DNA of 64,000 nucleotides, from the NCBI GenBank assembly GCA_040377305.1, contig JBEIPA010000008.1, positions 96,001 to 160,000 of the forward strand, written 5' to 3'. Source of the DNA: Flavobacteriales bacterium. GTDB taxonomy: Bacteria; Bacteroidota; Bacteroidia; Palsa-965. The position numbers and the translations under genes were made by a program. Shown here piece by piece: positions 10,806 to 52,210 of the stretch. Position 1 is the stretch's first letter, and each line of letters starts with the position of its first letter. A model generated the notes under the pieces. It made no database searches. It was not told the origin of the DNA and saw only the letters and a list, made by a program, of their open reading frames with translations.

Positions 10806-13800
10806 ATGAAAAAGCTCATTCTACTATATGCAATTGGCATTTTAGGTGCATTGCAAACACAGGCACAAACTATTTCCCACATGTGGTCCCGCGCCGCTGG
10901 TGGAAGCAATAATGATGCAGCTCACGGTATTGAAGTAGATGCGTCGGGTAACGTGTACACTGCGGGATACTTCTATGGTACAGTAGATTTTGATCCCGGC
11001 CCCGGAACATTAAATCTGACCTCCGCAGGTTCGTACGACATATTTGTTCAGAAACTAGATGCCAACGGAAGTCTGCTTTGGGTAAAACAAATTGGTGGTA
11101 GCGCTGGCAGCGAAGTTGCATTCGCGCTCGACGTTGATCCAAGTGGTAATATTCATTTTACTGGATACTTCGTCGGCACAGTTGATTTCGATCCTGGTGT
11201 GGGAACTGCAAACCTCACCTCTTCAAGCGGCGCAGACGTTTACGTTTGCAAGCTGGATAATAATGGAAATTATATCTGGGCTGTTGCGAATTCTGCTGCG
11301 AGTACTCAAAACGAACAAGGAATGGGTATCGCAGTTGATGGATCTGGAAATGTTTACTACACCGGCCTATTCCGTACCAACATGGACGTAAACCCGGGTG
11401 GACCAACTGTGACAATCTACACCGGAGCAGGAAACCTTCAGGTATTCATGATCAAACTCGATGCGACAGGTGCTTATGTGTGGGGTAAAGGTTTCAACGG
11501 TACAGGAACATCAGTGGGTAACGCAATTGCACTTGATCCAACCGGATCTGATGTTTACATCACGGGGTATTACAGCGGAACAGTGGATGTTGATCCGACC
11601 GCGCCTCTACTCAACCGTACAGCAGTTGGTCAGAATGATATTTTCATCGAGAAACTGTCTTCAGCAGGAACCTTCGGCTGGTGCATTAACTACGGAAGTA
11701 GTTACAACGAAGCGGGACAAGGTATCGCTATTACAGCAGCAGGAATAACCGCAACAGGCTCTTTCGCTGGCACCATCGATTTCGATGCCGGTGCTGGAAC
11801 AGCAAACATGCAAACTGACCTGATGTCGGGCAACACTGATGTGTATGTTCTTCGACTTACAACTGCGGGCGCATACTCGTGGTCGAAAAGTATTGGTGGA
11901 ACGGGTGTTGATGCGGGGTATGCAACTGCTGTAGATCAAAGCGGAAATGTATATACGACAGGATACTTCTCCGGCACTGCTGATCTCAATCCATCTGCGA
12001 CAACCCAAAATGCTACTTCGGCTGGAGTTGAAGATATTTTTGTCATGAAGCTTGATGGCTCCGGAAATTTTATTTGGAGCGGCGCATTAGGAAGTGCCGG
12101 TGCCGATATGGGCAACGCAATTTTCGGAACCTCTGCAAACAACGTGTACTATGCTGGTCACTACAGCGGCAGCATGGATTTCAATCCGGGTGCAGGAACA
12201 ACAACACTTGCAAACAGCGGTATGCGCGACATTTTTGTGTCGCGTTGGAATCAATGCACTGCGGCTCCATCAGCACCCGGGGTAATTTCCGGTGCAACTC
12301 CTGTTTGCGTTGGATCGACACAAACGTATAGTGTGACTGCGGTTGCAGGAGTAACGTATACATGGACACTGCCTGGTTTATGGAGTGGAAGTTCGAATTC
12401 AAATTCCATCGCTGCAACCGTAGGTGCGGGAAGCGGAAACATTACATGTACAGCGTCAAACGGATGCGGTACAAGTTCAACATCTACTTTGGCGGTGACC
12501 CATGCAACAATGCCAGTAACTCCATCAGCCATTTCAGGTTCGGCTACAGTTTGCGCCGGCAATGTTGTGACGTACAGTGTAACGCCAGTTGCAGGCATAA
12601 CTTACGCATGGACACTTCCGGGTGGATGGCCGGGTGGATCACCAAGCAATGTTGTTACGAGCACTGCAGGATCAAGCAGCGGAACCGTTTCGGTAACTGC
12701 AAGCAACGTGTGTGGTACAAGTTCAGCGTCAACATTGGCTGTAACATCAAGCGCCATTCCGGCAATGCCAAGTGTAATTTCGGGACCAGATACTATGTGT
12801 CCGGGTGCAATCAATACTTACAGCGTAACACCGGTTGCGGGAGTAACATACAATTGGACGTTACCACCAAGTTGGACAGGAAATTCAACATCTAACTCGA
12901 TCACCGCAACCGCAGGAACTGCAAGTGGATTTATTGAAGTTACAGCAACTAACTCTTGCGGAACAAGTGTACAGAGTTGGATAACGGTTGTTGTCAATAA
13001 CATTCCAACTAATCTTGGACCACTAACAGGTCAATCGCCGATCTGTGAAGGAAGTACACAGGTGTATACGGTAGCGAGCTATCCAGGCGCGACCTACACA
13101 TGGACACTACCTGCAACATGGACCGGTAACTCCACAACCAATTCACTTACCGCAATCGCAGGTTCTGCTGGTGGAACACTTTCCGTTGTTGCATCCAACG
13201 CCTGCGGAACCGGAAATCCGTCCTCGTACAACATTGCTGTAACAAATATTCCTGCGTCTCCTGTAAACATTGGCGGACCAGATACAGTATGTGGAAATTC
13301 CAATGCGACGTACTCTTGTTCCTCAATGCCAGGTGCAACATCATACACGTGGACCTTGCCTGGAGGTTGGAGCGGCTCATCAACATCAACATCAATAAAT
13401 GTTGTCACAGGAAATATCAGCGGAACTGTACAGGTTACTGCGAATAATACGTGCGGCAGCTCCGTCCCTAATAGCTATTCTGTCTTCACGGACACAGTTC
13501 CACTCGCTCCTGCCGCTATCACCGGAACAAGTGTTCTGTGCGAAAACAGTCCGTATGTATTTACATGCAGTTCAGTTGCGAATGCGACAACGTACAACTG
13601 GACTTATCCTTCAGGATGGACAGGAACCACTTCAGCAAATTCACTGAACGGAATAGTTGATAGTAATGGAGGATTAGTTTCTGTTTCGGTGACCAACCTC
13701 TGCGGAACATCAAACATGGCAACGTTAAGCGTAACAGTAAATCCTATGCCGGTTACATCAATCACAACAACAGGTGGAGGAATGGTTGCGGATGAACTCA

Positions 13801-28164: not shown

Positions 28165-28366
28165 GGAACGCGGATTTTGATGTGCTTTTGGTGTTAGCGG
28201 TGTGCTCGGATCTGTGTGGTAGTTAGATCGTTTCGGTATTGGATTTTATGAGATAAGCCCAAAGTATAGCGAGTTTATCTCATTAGATCCAAATACAAGC
28301 TGAAGTATACACCGCAGTGATCCGAGATCAGTACTAGAAAACAACGAACATAAAAATCCGCGTTCC
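28165..28366. repeat. Inverted pair of ~93-bp repeat units (copy A + 28165-28257; copy B - 28274-28366)
   Basis: GGAACGCGGATTTT...CTCGGATC...TTGGATTTTATGAGATA followed by its diverged reverse complement about 16 bp later. Confidence 0.92.
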
Positions 28367-28378
28367 CATGGCCACGAT

Positions 28379-28756
28379 CTAGGCCATGCGGCTCACATAA
28401 TGACTTCCGAAATCAGTCAGAGCCAATTCGGGACATACACCCTTCTTCCAGTGAAAAGAGCCGTCTTTTTGCTTTGCCAAATTCTTGTGGAGTCCTCCAA
28501 AATCGTAGAGGGAAGGAAACTTGCTTGTTGTGGGAGCGTCATACCGAAGTTCCACATATCCCGTCCTCAAGAGCTGCTCTACGGCTTCAGCCATGCGCTC
28601 TGCCAGCATGATCGTATCCGGATTTGTTTGATTGTTGAACAAGGTTGTGTACAACACCGAAACAGGCAAACAACCGCCACCTTCGTTACGCAACCATCTT
28701 AAGATCTGGCGCTGAAGGGTGGTGAGACGATTGAGTTCGGGTTGAATCTGCTTCAT
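28379..28756 (-). CDS. Hypothetical 125-aa protein, possibly winged helix
   Basis: ATG start with a TATCTTAG -7-like box upstream; LT.LQ..IL..L...L...GYV...LTDFG pattern. Confidence 0.6.
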   Translation of the reverse strand: MKQIQPELNRLTTLQRQILRWLRNEGGGCLPVSVLYTTLFNNQTNPDTIMLAERMAEAVEQLLRTGYVELRYDAPTTSKFPSLYDFGGLHKNLAKQKDGSFHWKKGVCPELALTDFGSHYVSRMA

Positions 28757-28788
28757 GCCGCTAAGATAGTGATGCGCTGGAGAAAAAA

Positions 28789-29219
28789 GGAACGCGGATT
28801 TTGATGTGCTTTTGGTGTTAATGGTTATCTCGGATCAGCGCAGTGCATAAAAGATTTCGGTATTGGATTTTATGAGATAGGTTTGCTAGTGCAAGGCAAT
28901 AAAAAAGGAACGCGGATTTTGATATGCTTTGGTGTTAGCGGTTATCTCGGATCAGCGCGGTGCATAGAATCATTCGGTATTGGATTTTATGAGACAGGTT
29001 TGCTAGTGCAAGACTACAGAATAGGAACGCGGATTTTGATGTGCCTTTGGTGTTAGCGGCTGTCTCGGATCAGCACGGTGTATAGAACGTTCCGTTATTG
29101 GATTTAATGAGATAAGCCTAACAAGTCTATCTCATAAGATCCAATTCTCAGTCGAAGTATTTACCACAATGATCCGAGAGCAGCATTAGAAAACAACGAA
29201 ACACAAAAATCCGCGTTCC
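28789..29219. repeat. Array of ~93-bp repeat units: three direct copies (28789, 28907, 29024) and one inverted copy (29127-29219)
   Basis: Period 118/117 bp with similar linkers (TTTGCTAGTGCAAG); the last copy is reverse-oriented. Confidence 0.93.
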
Positions 29220-43335: not shown

Positions 43336-43491
43336 GGGGGTATGGGGGATGAGGAATGAGGGATGAGGAATGTGGTATGCGGAATGTGAAATCCAGCAGT
43401 TTGCAGAGAATTAAGTGTTTTTATGAAATTGAATATGATCACAACCTTCGGCCCCCTTCCCTCATCCCCCATTCCCCATCCCTCGTTCCTC
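43336..43491. repeat. Inverted arrays of 7-mers (GnGGnAT x8 / ATTCCCC-like x5) between divergent genes
   Basis: GGGGTATGGGGGATGAGGAATGAGGGATGAGGAATG... and CCCTCATCCCCCATTCCCCATCCCTCGTTCCTC. Confidence 0.8.
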
Positions 43492-47229: not shown

Positions 47230-48351
47230 TTACTTCCACTGAATCGTAGTCGCAATCGTAAATGCCGCGCCATCGAAGTCGAGACTCAACTGCTCTTCCC
47301 AAATCGGAACAATCGTTTCTACGAGCGCAAATCCACCTGACTGTTTGTGATAAACGTAATAGCGATACGTCGTTGTTGCATTTCCCTCCAATGAAACATA
47401 ACGATAAGTAGCTGCAAATACTTCTACTCCGGGTTGCGATTCAATTTTTCGGAATGTGGTTCCTTCTCTTTCTTTGACATCGAGTGAATCCGAATAAATT
47501 TTGAAGTCATTTCTCGCGGCAATGCTGAAGCTGTCTTCGATCGCAAGGCGCGTGTAGTCGATGTTCACTACATACGGAAATCCTGCAGGCCATACGGTTT
47601 GATGCGTTTCCTTATACTCGTCAACACGCCATCCGAATGGTACGCAAAAGGAATAGCCGTAATCACACGTGTACATCAAGTTAGATTGACCACAACCTTC
47701 GCTGATTACCAATGACGCCGGAACGTATGAAGTAGTTGTGTTCGATTGCTCAATGAACCAGAAGTAATCCATGAAGTAACTTCCTGCAAGATCAACGTGG
47801 ATTCCAACTTCATCACTCAATGGAGCTACATACGGAACCGACAACACAAGTTGTTCGTTAATGGAGAAATCGTATTGATTCGTTTCCATGTTGCGTTCAA
47901 CACGAATGCTGTTCAAACCGTCGCCACTGTAGGCGTAGTTGAATGAATTCGGAGAAACTACAGCGAGCTTTCCTTTCACTTTATTCTCGAAGATGAAACT
48001 ACCGTCGCCATACACAAGAAATGCCATGTATGTTGAGTCATTGTCCGCACGACCCCACACGAGTCCAACGCCTTTGTTAGCTCCTACTCCACTGTCGCGC
48101 TCGATGTTGGTTTCAATCCGGAAATGTTTTTCGAATCCGCCTTTAACAGCGAATGTGTGACGAAAATATCCATCGTTTTTTGATTCGAGGTTGTAACGAC
48201 CGTCTTTAACGTAAACAGTATTTGCGTCGGTTAGGGATTCGGGCCAGCCGTTATCGTTGTTATCGAAGCCGTCGAAGATGTTGCGTTGCGCGTTTAGCGA
48301 CAGCGCACAGCAGATTGAGAGAAACAGCGAGTAGAATTTCAGCACGGTCAA
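47230..48351 (-). CDS. Hypothetical secreted protein (lectin/DUF1080-like N-domain, PsbP-like C-domain)
   Basis: Signal peptide; FD.FDNNDNGW, GLVWG, YGYSF.VP.GW. Confidence 0.65.
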   Translation of the reverse strand: MTVLKFYSLFLSICCALSLNAQRNIFDGFDNNDNGWPESLTDANTVYVKDGRYNLESKNDGYFRHTFAVKGGFEKHFRIETNIERDSGVGANKGVGLVWGRADNDSTYMAFLVYGDGSFIFENKVKGKLAVVSPNSFNYAYSGDGLNSIRVERNMETNQYDFSINEQLVLSVPYVAPLSDEVGIHVDLAGSYFMDYFWFIEQSNTTTSYVPASLVISEGCGQSNLMYTCDYGYSFCVPFGWRVDEYKETHQTVWPAGFPYVVNIDYTRLAIEDSFSIAARNDFKIYSDSLDVKEREGTTFRKIESQPGVEVFAATYRYVSLEGNATTTYRYYVYHKQSGGFALVETIVPIWEEQLSLDFDGAAFTIATTIQWK

Positions 48352-48398: not shown

Positions 48399-48492
48399 GC
48401 AACGCGAATTTTGATGCCCAGGGCGTGTTAGTCCTCCTCTCGGATCATCGCGGTAGATAGAAAAACCGGTTATTGGATTTTATGAGATAAAC
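48399..48492 (+). repeat. 93-bp repeat family copy G (diverged), immediately downstream of the GxxExxY gene
   Basis: GCAACGCGAATTTTGATG...CTCGGATCA...TTGGATTTTATGAGATAAAC. Confidence 0.88.
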
Positions 48493-48502
48493 TTGGTTGG
48501 GC

Positions 48503-48901
48503 TCAAGATGCCTTACGATCATTTTCAAAAATCTTACGTTTGAAACTTGGTTCTTCACCAAAATTCAAGAGCATCCCCACTTCCATTCTTGTCGCTCTCA
48601 AATAATTTAACAATTGGACCTCATTCTCTGGCGCTAATTTGGTTGCCGCTTTCAGTTCAACAATTACCTTTTCTTCAACAACCATGTCAGCGAAATAAAT
48701 TCCTATCTGCTGATCTCTGTAATAAACAGTAATTGGTTCTTGCGTTTTGAACTTAACTTTCATCTTCTGAAGCTCAATTGCCATGGCTTTCTCGTAGTTC
48801 TTTTCAAGAAATCCATATCCCAATTCATTGTAAACGTTGTAATACGCACGCAGAATTTTTCCTGTAACATCGCTGTGTAACATAACATCTGTATTTATCA
48901 T
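48503..48901 (-). CDS. GxxExxY protein (PD-(D/E)XK nuclease superfamily, PDDEXK_3)
   Basis: GFLEKNY (GxxExxY), ADMVVEEKVIVELKA (D...ExK), QLLNYL, GMLLNFG. Confidence 0.95.
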   Translation of the reverse strand: MINTDVMLHSDVTGKILRAYYNVYNELGYGFLEKNYEKAMAIELQKMKVKFKTQEPITVYYRDQQIGIYFADMVVEEKVIVELKAATKLAPENEVQLLNYLRATRMEVGMLLNFGEEPSFKRKIFENDRKAS

Positions 48902-48919
48902 TCATATAAAACCTAACGA

Positions 48920-49291
48920 GCCTATCTCATAAAATCCCAAAATCTAAACGAACTATTCACCCTACTGATCCGAGATCACCGCTAACACCAAACACACATC
49001 AAAATCCGCGTTCCATTCATCCTCAACTTTAACAAGCCTATCTCATAAAATCCAATATCCAGCCTTTCAAATTTACCGCACTGATCCGAGCGATAACCTA
49101 ACAATTAACGTATATCAAAATCCGCGTTCCATGTTCACCGCTAACACCAAACACACTTCAAAATCCGCGTTCCATTCATCCTCAACTTTAACAAGCCTAT
49201 CTCATAAAATCCAATATCCAGCCTTTCAAGTTTACCGCACTGATCCGAGCGATAACCTAACAATTAACTTATATCAAAATCCGCGTTCCAT
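48920..49291 (-). repeat. 93-bp repeat family array: H 48920-49014, I 49036-49130, partial J 49136-49173, K 49195-49289
   Basis: Full copies read CCTATCTCATAAAATCC...TGATCCGAG...TCAAAATCCGCGTTCC on the plus strand; includes a 159-bp-period near-exact duplication. Confidence 0.93.
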
Positions 49292-49292
49292 T

Positions 49293-50369
49293 TCAAAACA
49301 GCGACAACTGCGCAGCCCCAGCCTTCGGATTAAAGTCCTGCGTATTCCAGGGCATGGGATCCTGATTCAACCCAAGACGACTTGCCGTTAGCTTAAACAG
49401 TTTCGCAATACTCTCCGCCATCTGTCCTTCACCAGTCATGCGAACTCCGTAACGCGTGTCGTTGACTTTTCCACCGTGAGCGCCTTCGATGTGATGCAGG
49501 ATTTTTTCAGCACGATCAGGATACGATTTGCGTAACCAGTCGCGGAAGATATCGCCAACTTGTCCGTTGAGACGTACCATCGTGTAGCCAGCGCTCCGAG
49601 CTCCGTTGGCTGCTGCAGTTTCGAGTACTTCCGGAATCTCGTGTGAGTTCAATCCCGGAATAACCGGTCCGAATAAAATTCCGGTTCTGATACCTGCTTC
49701 GGAAAGAATGCGCAATGTCTCAAAACGATTCTTGTATGTAGAAGTTCTCGGCTCGAGTTTCTGACGAACATCTTCATCCATTCCGGTAATGCTGATCATC
49801 ACATGCACGAGATTTTTCTTCGCCATGTCCGCAAGAATATCAATATCGCGACAGATGAGAGAATTCTTCGTGATCATTGCTGCAGGGTGACGAAACTTCA
49901 GCAAAACTTCCAGCATCTTCCGCGTGAGTTGAAGCTTTCGCTCAATGGGTTGATAGCAATCGGTGTTGCCGGAAAACATCATCGGCTCTGCTTTGTGACG
50001 AGGATTGCTGAGCTCTTTCTCGAGCAATTCAAATGCATTCATCTTCACAATCACCTTGCGTTCGAAATCGAGCCCAGCGCTATATCCCCAGAACTCGTGT
50101 GAATTTCTCGCATAACAATACACACACCCGTGCTCACAACCCTGATAAGGATTCAACGACAAGTTCATCAGATCCGGGCTATCGACTTTATTTATAATCG
50201 TCTTTGGAAACGTCTGCAGATACTCCGTCTTGTCATCGAGCAGCATGGGCTCATCAATTACCTCGATGTGCTCCATAACTCGTTGCTGCTTGAAGAAACG
50301 GTTGTTTGGATTTATCTGCGCACCGCGCCCGTGAAATGTTTGATTGTCGTAAATGTTGCTCGCGATCAT
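49293..50369 (-). CDS. PA0069 family radical SAM protein (SplB-like)
   Basis: GRGAQINP.NRF, LNPYQGCEHGCVYCYAR, SGNTDCYQP, LEPRT, terminal QLSLF. Confidence 0.93.
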   Translation of the reverse strand: MIASNIYDNQTFHGRGAQINPNNRFFKQQRVMEHIEVIDEPMLLDDKTEYLQTFPKTIINKVDSPDLMNLSLNPYQGCEHGCVYCYARNSHEFWGYSAGLDFERKVIVKMNAFELLEKELSNPRHKAEPMMFSGNTDCYQPIERKLQLTRKMLEVLLKFRHPAAMITKNSLICRDIDILADMAKKNLVHVMISITGMDEDVRQKLEPRTSTYKNRFETLRILSEAGIRTGILFGPVIPGLNSHEIPEVLETAAANGARSAGYTMVRLNGQVGDIFRDWLRKSYPDRAEKILHHIEGAHGGKVNDTRYGVRMTGEGQMAESIAKLFKLTASRLGLNQDPMPWNTQDFNPKAGAAQLSLF

Positions 50370-50458
50370 GGCTTTCCCTCTTTTGATCAAAGCTAGAGAG
50401 GCAGGAAGCGGACGGCAAGGTATTTAACGCATAGCTAAATTTTTTAGCCAGGATGGCT

Positions 50459-50607
50459 AACGCTGCAAGGGTTACGCGCGCGCGTACGCGAACCCTGCAG
50501 GAGTTAAACGCTTGCGGGGTTCGAGATTCAGACACGCTCCAAGGGTTAAGCCCTTGAAGGGTTACACGTGCGCGCGAACCCTGCAGGAGTTAAACGCTTG
50601 CAGGGTT
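50459..50607. repeat. REP-like palindromes AACCCTGCAGG-AGTTAAACG-CTTGCAGGGTT and variants (about 4 units)
   Basis: Near-identical 31-bp hairpins at 50491-50521 and 50577-50607; variants at 50459 and 50533; CG-alternating linkers. Confidence 0.8.
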
Positions 50608-52079: not shown

Positions 52080-52120
52080 GATGAGATATTGAGAGGTCAA
52101 GATACGAAATCGCGGGAGAA

Positions 52121-52210
52121 GGAATTAGGGGATTAAGGGATTGGGGGATTTGGGACTACAAGTGGTATGAACCGCCCAAATCCCACAATCCCCCAATTCC
52201 GCATCTCCTC
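52121..52210. repeat. Inverted arrays of 8-mers (GGGATTnn / nnAATCCC)
   Basis: GGAATTAGGGGATTAAGGGATTGGGGGATTTGGG ... CCCAAATCCCACAATCCCCCAATTCC. Confidence 0.78.

Follow-up and report, generated by a model that had tools for sequence, protein, structure and literature searches.

[quoted passage not shown] In the accounts cited here, they are extragenic inverted doublets that fold into hairpins (PMC8049555, PMC5581495, PMC3733652); each family has one cognate enzyme gene that is repeat-flanked, single-copy and vertically inherited, several systems coexist per genome, and the doublet is the copied unit. The repeat family described here appears to resemble them in all of these respects. The differences, as far as these sources describe REPIN-RAYT systems, REPtrons and TIRtrons, concern the enzyme and the arms. 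The enzyme in the present case is a 126-aa PD-(D/E)XK protein (PF13366) with no known joining chemistry, whereas RAYTs are HUH/Y1 transposases (PF01797). The arms are arrays of short words spread over 95 nt, whereas REPs are short and self-palindromic with a GTAG foot, and mismatches occur along the whole stem. Neither a GTAG nor a CGTC foot was found as an end tag in the consensus long arm.

Other known elements share part of this layout. MITEs and insertion sequences, as described in PMC3733652, likewise occur in gene-bearing and gene-less forms with common inverted ends, measure 70-300 bp and lie beside coding sequences. The present family differs from them in the lack of a target duplication and of a DDE transposase domain, in the high divergence of its copies within the spacers, and in the absence of near-identical gene copies, the best paralogue being 52% identical. 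The inverted heptamer pairs of Xanthomonas are also intergenic word arrays near or overlapping stop codons, and are largely kept orthologously; in that account, however, they are G-quadruplex repeats with another word, no spaced blocks and no partner gene, and the terms "nuclease" and "transposase" do not occur in the main text (PMC4692102). Cas4- and RecB-type nucleases (SSO0001, lambda exonuclease, AddAB) resemble the GxxExxY protein in fold and in the D, ExK and QxxxY motifs, but the latter is much smaller and has no cysteine cluster, and neither a CRISPR array nor a cas gene is present at the locus. ORF-bearing intervening sequences of 23S rRNA have a long stem whose loop contains a small gene. 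The present element differs in its intergenic position between protein genes, in showing no sign of RNA-level selection, and in its nuclease-fold cargo. The function of PDDEXK_3 is given as "Unknown", with multiple transfers, in PMC3424549. Within PMC open-access and bioRxiv text, nothing linked GxxExxY or PF13366 to repeats, and the family is unmentioned in a recent preprint on mining non-coding elements.

The window, that is, the whole stretch of 64,000 nucleotides analysed here, corresponds to G000:C60:96001-160000, where G000 denotes the genome of origin and G015 that of a sister species. It encodes a type IX secretion tail domain (PF18962), a Bacteroidota-type feature. Table 1 lists the elements and genes considered. 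As the initial annotation had reported, the 132-aa GxxExxY gene fills the gap between arms G and H, with 10 nt between the end of arm G and the stop codon and 18 nt between arm H and the first ATG. In profile searches, the ORF matched PF13366 (E 3e-39, 134 bits, curated cut-off 22) and TIGR04256 (E 2e-38, 131 bits, curated cut-off 35). The true start is probably Met7 (48883), giving 126 aa, because 11 of the 13 nearest homologues measure 124-126 aa.

Table 1. Features of the long-arm repeat family and neighbouring genes in the window (positions within the window)
Feature	Position	Strand	Remarks
GxxExxY / PDDEXK_3 gene	48503..48901	-	132 aa from first ATG; D, ExK, QxxxY intact
Arm G	48399..48492	+	3' of gene, inward-facing; two changes in outer block
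Arm H	48920..49014	-	5' of gene, inward-facing; partner of G around gene
Arm I	49036..49130	-	additional copy upstream of gene
Partial arm, outer block only	49138..49173	-	junction of 159-bp tandem duplication
Arm J	49195..49289	-	outermost; 3 nt past radical SAM gene stop codon
Gene-less doublet A-B	28165..28366	.	long-arm family; head-to-head arms, interrupted hairpin, fold z -8.6
Gene-less array C-D-E-F	28789..29219	.	three + arms, one - arm
PA0069-family radical SAM host gene	49293..50390	-	flank; slot marker, outside element
373-aa host gene, without family match	47230..48351	-	flank

The eleven copies originally counted in the window comprise ten full arms and one partial arm. Six of them lie at 28165-29219, in agreement with the gene-less units noted 20 kb away, and the slot of the C-D-E-F array holds a plain doublet in G015 (L087). 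The two further full copies and the partial copy described upstream of the gene are present, but arms I, partial and J represent a single event, a 159-bp tandem duplication (48969-49127 / 49128-49286, 96% identical). Similarly, the comparison of the outward-pointing ends with terminal inverted repeats stands in part: inverted ends are present, but within the G/H pair the exact GGAACGCGG end occurs in H only, the outer block of G being altered at two positions. Other repeats were also observed in the window, namely three intergenic palindromes or short arrays of unrelated families (43337-43477, 50487-50607 and 52120-52209) and four 246-bp coding repeats (82-aa units) within a large protein (12324-13121). 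A 125-aa ORF at 28379-28756 (-), without NCBIfam match, lies between the outer ends of two elements; it is found in G015 too and was therefore treated as a host gene.

One search scored at least 5546 close relatives of the GxxExxY protein. Among 121 homologues, residues G22, G24, Y30, D66, E76, K78, Q90 and Y94 (126-aa numbering) were invariant. The predicted model (pLDDT 93.9) has a minimal PD-(D/E)XK fold of RecB/Cas4 type, and the restriction-like fold with the D and ExK catalytic motif is present in it, as the earlier superfamily assignment from D...ExK and QxxxY had suggested. The best Foldseek match was Cas4 SSO0001 (PDB 4ic1; E 3e-4, TM 0.59), followed by lambda/RecB-type exonucleases, with TM values of 0.56-0.59 for the best matches overall. 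VIA structure comparison gave middling Z scores of 8.3 (BpuSI, rmsd 3.2, 96 aligned), 8.2 and 7.7 (SSO0001). For this predicted structure, the scores establish the fold only. A sequence search of the PDB with the GxxExxY protein returned no match, and homodimer prediction gave a score of 0.00, which speaks neither for nor against a dimer. The QxxxY motif is a mark of RecB-family nucleases, which act on single-stranded or branched DNA.

A profile built from the ten full window arms, rebuilt once and searched by nhmmer against G000, identified 147 arms in 68 clusters; the reversed G000 genome, used as a control, contained no arm matches. This genome-wide count, which the initial annotation had called for, changes the description of the repeat. 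Plain head-to-head (+-) doublets, none of them with a gene, account for 47 of the 68 clusters, and the window cluster is the only one with a gene between inward arms. The usual unit is thus not the single repeat of about 93 bp but a head-to-head doublet of about 193 bp (the modal length), which forms an imperfect palindrome and stands without the gene at about 65 other places in G000.

Each long arm contains four R-GAT cores, 36, 33 and 10 nt apart. The 36 and 33 bp core spacing originally noted in copies A and C was confirmed, and among the 117 arms scored genome-wide the first gap measures 36 nt in 85 and 35-37 nt in 115, while the second is 33 nt in 75 and 34 nt in 35. Of 95 arm columns, 36 are conserved at 90% or more and 43 are variable; an arm departs from the consensus at a mean of 0.85 of the 36 conserved columns, whereas even its nearest dispersed neighbour matches at only 67% of the variable ones.

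The clusters are located mostly behind genes. Among 50 complete clusters with called neighbours, 29 are flanked by co-directional, 15 by convergent and 6 by divergent genes, against 2709, 609 and 588, respectively, in the G000 background. Outer ends that face a stop codon lie at -4 to 19 nt from it in 53 of 59 cases and within 7 nt in 37 of 59, while the start side is usually tens to more than 100 nt away (counts from a simple ORF caller, uncontrolled for distance). No target-site duplication was visible, as had been stated for the window: the mean best flank repeat was 2.75 nt in 44 doublets and 2.75 nt in shuffled pairs. Beyond a few A/T bases, no shared insertion-site sequence was seen. Inverted repeats as such are common in this genome, being present in 84 of 250 sampled gaps of at least 50 nt. 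Single arms of 108-109 nt also form tandem arrays at G000:C35:18017-18463, C12:34700-35216 and C2:47767-47967, which are 92-100% alike from locus to locus and point to local amplification and recent exchange.

Folded as RNA, the doublet gives an extended stem in which small loops recur regularly (z -8.6), and as single-stranded DNA 49 doublets reached a median z of -5.4 (rough shuffle). The two arms of a doublet complement each other less in their spacers than random pairing would give. In G000, spacer complementarity within the doublet is 0.326 versus 0.384 for shuffled partners (45 doublets), with none of 2000 shuffles as low when arms were paired randomly within the same subtype classes, and in G015 it is 0.331 versus 0.372 (31 doublets). 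The longest perfect run is at most 16 bp in 80 of 88 doublets. On the transcribed strand, G-U-compatible mismatches are not favoured (196 vs 223, 29 doublets), no compensatory pairing was detected in the doublet arms, and Rfam gave no match for the repeat at the gathering threshold. A selected RNA fold for the doublets was rejected on the absence of G-U strand bias and of complementary spacers. The same observations agree with the early impression that the blocks resemble protein sites rather than an RNA fold, yet a long interrupted hairpin does fold. We read this as a strand-symmetric constraint that would act at the DNA level, in which blocks pair and spacers must not. The mismatched spacers may form loops that are recognised, or long perfect stems may merely be harmful; long palindromes are cleaved by SbcCD-type nucleases. 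Outer subtype and inner-end type each occur roughly as one of each per doublet. A fixed left/right polarity derived from the gene-bearing copy was discarded, since the two features are uncoupled (17:12 and 7:9).

These data also bear on an RNA-level origin comparable to the ORF-bearing 23S rRNA intervening sequences, in which the arms would pair in the transcript, the stem would be excised or processed, and the nuclease would initiate homing-like gene conversion that spreads the element. The gene does lie in the loop of a long stem, the RNA fold is strong, transcription is likely because the doublets stand behind stop codons, and the PF05635 four-helix proteins, which are considered below, are named after 23S rRNA intervening sequences. 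However, the indifference to G-U pairing on the sense strand, the missing compensatory changes, the anti-complementary spacers in both species and the lack of an Rfam match point away from a selected transcript, and insertion sites that share only a few A/T bases are unlike homing sites. We therefore regard this explanation as very unlikely.

The GxxExxY gene of the window is one of eight PF13366 genes in G000, which are at most 52% identical to one another. All eight are enclosed by their own inward arms, each with a different word. The arms of the other seven paralogues have 23, 44, 69, 39, 92, 3 and 52 dispersed matches (the sets with 44 and 69 overlap), while controls gave 0. Relatives at 51-59% protein identity have compact arms with the same outer word and three more cores only 9-10 nt apart; since the outer word is shared and the cores are close-set, the window family can be understood as an expanded version of a widespread compact arm. 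Flanking inverted repeats were also sought at GxxExxY genes elsewhere, as originally proposed, and were found at 47 of 59 related GTDB loci (E<1e-3; 66 loci sampled, 7 dropped for too-short flanks) but at none of 47 shifted windows. Seventeen GTDB loci match in direct orientation too, because whole doublets are contained.

Two of the other systems in G000 have features of their own. L006 (G000:C53:25101-27357) represents a second long-arm family, with CATAG words, a long spacer and 92 arms; 23 of its 54 outer ends overlap the upstream stop at exactly -4, and the element end therefore supplies the TAA. Another GxxExxY orthologue (L007, L013, L018, L019 and L278) occupies the same slot, behind a gene resembling radA, in G000, G007, G010, G014 and G015. 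Its arm words have drifted, and its exact arms have only 3 matches in G000.

The layout is also found around other genes. In G000, 7 of 9 four-helix-bundle genes (PF05635) are enclosed by their own inward word arrays, with 2-35 dispersed loci each; the genes examined include C11:25464-25775, C46:102424-102714 and C7:50842-51138. Four-helix-bundle proteins are not known to have catalytic activity. Among the PF01797 (Y1 transposase-like) genes of G000 (L293-L302), 4 of 10 have flanking inverted repeats with 2-11 dispersed loci, and these are likely ordinary RAYT/TIRYT systems beside the GxxExxY ones. Layout alone is thus no proof that the nuclease is the mover, since four-helix and Y1 genes share it. 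The original parallel with REP(IN) and MITE systems, with a nuclease as partner, holds for the RAYT-like pairing, but the arrangement is not special to nucleases. A Y1 transposase acting as a neighbouring mover was rejected: none of the 10 Y1 genes lies within 500 bp of arms of the long-arm family. Likewise, neither a Y1 transposase nor a four-helix gene was found within 500 bp of any GxxExxY-family arm (0 of 19).

Whether the repeat accompanies its gene was followed across genomes. The long-arm pattern has 69 matches in G000 and 68 in G015, and none in the remaining 25 genus genomes (27 in total, several incomplete; the unpublished G012 is among the 25, and no conclusion depends on it). Apart from G000 itself, only G015 among the 27 has an orthologue of the window gene, which is 79% identical and has the same locus and the same arms. 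The two outcomes that the initial annotation named as contrary to its proposal, a repeat equally abundant without this gene clade and orthologues without flanking repeats, were thus not observed, although the correlation amounts to one event because G000 and G015 are sisters. In DNA, the long-arm clade was seen in these two genomes; 13 proteins at 67-94% are known from protein alone, and a metagenome scan gave no relative above 67%.

Two further families provide wider comparisons, with thresholds chosen after the counts were seen and related genomes that are not independent. Among 40 genomes, at least 16 matches to the compact R-GAT arms occur in 10 of the 11 that have a 50%+ relative and in 3 of the 29 that have none, and the CATAG family reaches at least 10 matches in 7 of 9 genomes with a 55%+ paralogue relative versus 1 of 31 others. 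The expected tracking of repeat abundance with the cognate gene is therefore seen in three families, but with exceptions. Compact arms at or above the threshold without a 50%+ gene occur in G001 (71% complete), G018 (89%) and G035, the last of which is 100% complete and has 40 compact-arm matches. G028 has the gene and 1 compact-arm match, its arms using another word; G024 and G036 have a CATAG-type gene but 3-4 matches each, and G010 has 15 CATAG matches without a close gene. Furthermore, the shared word class rises with protein identity, from 17/96 pairs at 20-29% through 454/1377, 199/471 and 209/304 to 225/269 at 60-69% and 30/39 at 70-79%, with crude word labels (45/117 rows unlabelled) and a sample rich in one class. 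The protein tree, a quick version with 133 columns and many open forks, serves for coarse grouping only. Some agreement between words and proteins is expected from co-inheritance alone, because gene and arms are physically linked.

A specific gene-repeat partnership is supported by these comparisons. They may be set against the possibility that a shared mover blind to family, such as host recombination, a Y1 transposase or another enzyme, acts on long imperfect palindromes of any kind, so that GxxExxY and four-helix genes would be cargo that comes with its arms, seeding the families and perhaps binding the words for self-regulation only. The recurrence of the layout at four-helix-bundle and Y1 genes, the frequency of inverted repeats in sampled gaps, and the repeats of G035 without a close gene can all be read in this manner. 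A family-blind mover, however, would not preserve family-specific words and their spacing across about 140 arms, and it accounts neither for the invariant catalytic residues nor for the abundance that follows the cognate gene in three families, which makes a passenger role quite unlikely.

The gene itself appears to be resident. The locus was inspected in 15 further genomes of the genus, another comparison suggested at the outset. In none of them does a GxxExxY gene occupy the slot after the radical SAM gene, which in G007, G011 and G022 is followed at once by the 373-aa gene, without the element. The comparison indicates that the element was gained at the window slot once (or lost in relatives once) and then stayed. 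About one substitution per fourfold site separates G000 from G015 (0.46 identity across 5720 sites). Across this distance, each of the eight paralogues has a distinct best partner in G015 at 50-79% identity, with dN of 0.17-0.42 and saturated dS; the window gene and its orthologue have a dN of 0.17 with saturated dS, a sign of purifying selection. Synteny, based on two genomes only, is kept on both flanks for four paralogues, on one flank for two and on neither for one, with one untestable. One G015 GxxExxY copy has an in-frame stop. In the pair L003 (G000:C10:136966) and L268 (G015:C50:9133), the flanks are the same on both sides while the proteins are 50% identical, as opposed to 64-79% in other pairs, and one GxxExxY gene may have taken the place of another there. 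GxxExxY relatives were found on 8 of 72,556 plasmid records and on none of the 50,697 phage records searched. This history follows the pattern described for RAYTs and not that of insertion sequences (PMC5581495). The designation as an autonomous element in the IS or MITE sense finds no support: the gene is single-copy, kept at one locus across a deep split, and under purifying selection.

The repeat slots are partly retained and partly turned over across the same distance. From 68 pattern matches in G015, 40 repeat loci were fetched, 11 of which were unmappable; of the 29 resolved slots, the corresponding place in G000 carries the same family in 15 and lacks it in 14. In seven of these 14, a different strong inverted repeat is present, compared with 84 of 250 sampled gaps, and replacement by another palindrome was set aside as an explanation, the excess over background being only modest. 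Where a slot is shared, identity amounts to 95.7% in the conserved columns and to 0.44 in the spacers, which is at background (0.43); of 8 shared doublets that could be typed cleanly, 4 have their arm subtypes in flipped order. Conserved blocks with scrambled spacers imply that the blocks are kept or rewritten in place.

Such retention raises the alternative that host function comes first, with doublets serving gene 3' ends as DNA or transcript landmarks, the protein binding or processing them, and spreading as a rare by-product. The shared slots, the contrast between blocks and spacers, the proximity of outer ends to stop codons and the vertical maintenance of the gene would suit such a role. 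However, there is no strand bias for RNA pairing, slots turn over, partly to other inverted repeats, the 25 genus genomes manage without the long-arm family, and recent element-bounded copies exist. Slots could also come to be shared through repeated insertion at favoured places, as the flipped orders illustrate. We consider host function as the primary explanation unlikely.

The recent copies concern one doublet found at C50 and at the C6 end / C2 start, which is about 94.5% identical, with the identity ending at the element ends, in otherwise unrelated loci (perhaps two and not three, because contig ends are involved). The likeness may reflect recent copying, with whole-element conversion as an alternative. 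In G000, 6 of 44 doublets have the same nearest doublet for both arms, where about 1 would be expected (Mantel p 0.007); in G015 the figure is 4 of 31, and the Mantel correlation is not significant (rho 0.013, p 0.40). Judged from these sequence relationships, mobility appears slow but real, and the doublet appears to be the copied unit. Three joints with sides of 21-22 nt, observed in contigs, belong to other doublets of the metagenome and do not represent excision.

Taken at its best reading, the locus would represent a RAYT/REPIN-like partnership built on a PD-(D/E)XK nuclease, for which we infer binding, cutting and copying. In the mechanism that we favour and hold to be somewhat probable, the GxxExxY protein recognises its own arm words and nicks the folded doublet, and repair by the host leads to copied or rewritten doublets at the 3' ends of genes. 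The four R-GAT cores, at the long-arm spacing or 9-10 nt apart in relatives, would be the protein binding sites. The protein would act on the doublet as a cruciform or a folded single strand, with paired blocks and with spacer loops that keep perfect stems short; it would recognise the conserved words of its own arms and likely cut there, and host repair or recombination would then slowly copy and replace doublets. As the enzyme would have no joining chemistry of its own, the copying step would fall to host recombination or repair, and this fits the missing target duplication and the replacement of local spacers. Gene 3' ends may be favoured because insertion at such places leaves promoters and ribosome-binding sites intact, and because the A/T-rich element end often abuts or overlaps the stop codon. 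The blocks have been held in place over about one substitution per site, which is more than replication alone explains. The gene appears to have moved to the window slot once and to be a resident, domesticated partner at present.

At the window locus, the expanded spaced-block arms, the anti-complementary spacers and the slot-level persistence are new; in G000, the coexistence of eight mostly vertically inherited GxxExxY-repeat systems in one genome is new. More tentatively, and with some doubt, these systems may constitute a second kind of self-maintaining sequence population, in which RecB/Cas4-like nucleases, each with its own word code on an interrupted hairpin, copy palindromes to the 3' ends of genes with neither transposase nor recombinase, eight such pairs coexisting and the code here being stretched into spaced blocks with mismatched spacers. 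The eight orthogonal enzyme-repeat pairs in one genome allow a clean comparison of cross-specificity, the drifting arm words at the radA-like slot in five genomes offer a good case for residue-word covariation, and nucleases of 126 aa with natural specificity variants would be of technical interest. Were the pairing causal, a substrate would be assigned to a large family of orphan nucleases, and a second intragenomic sequence population, run by an unrelated enzyme class, would stand beside the REPINs.
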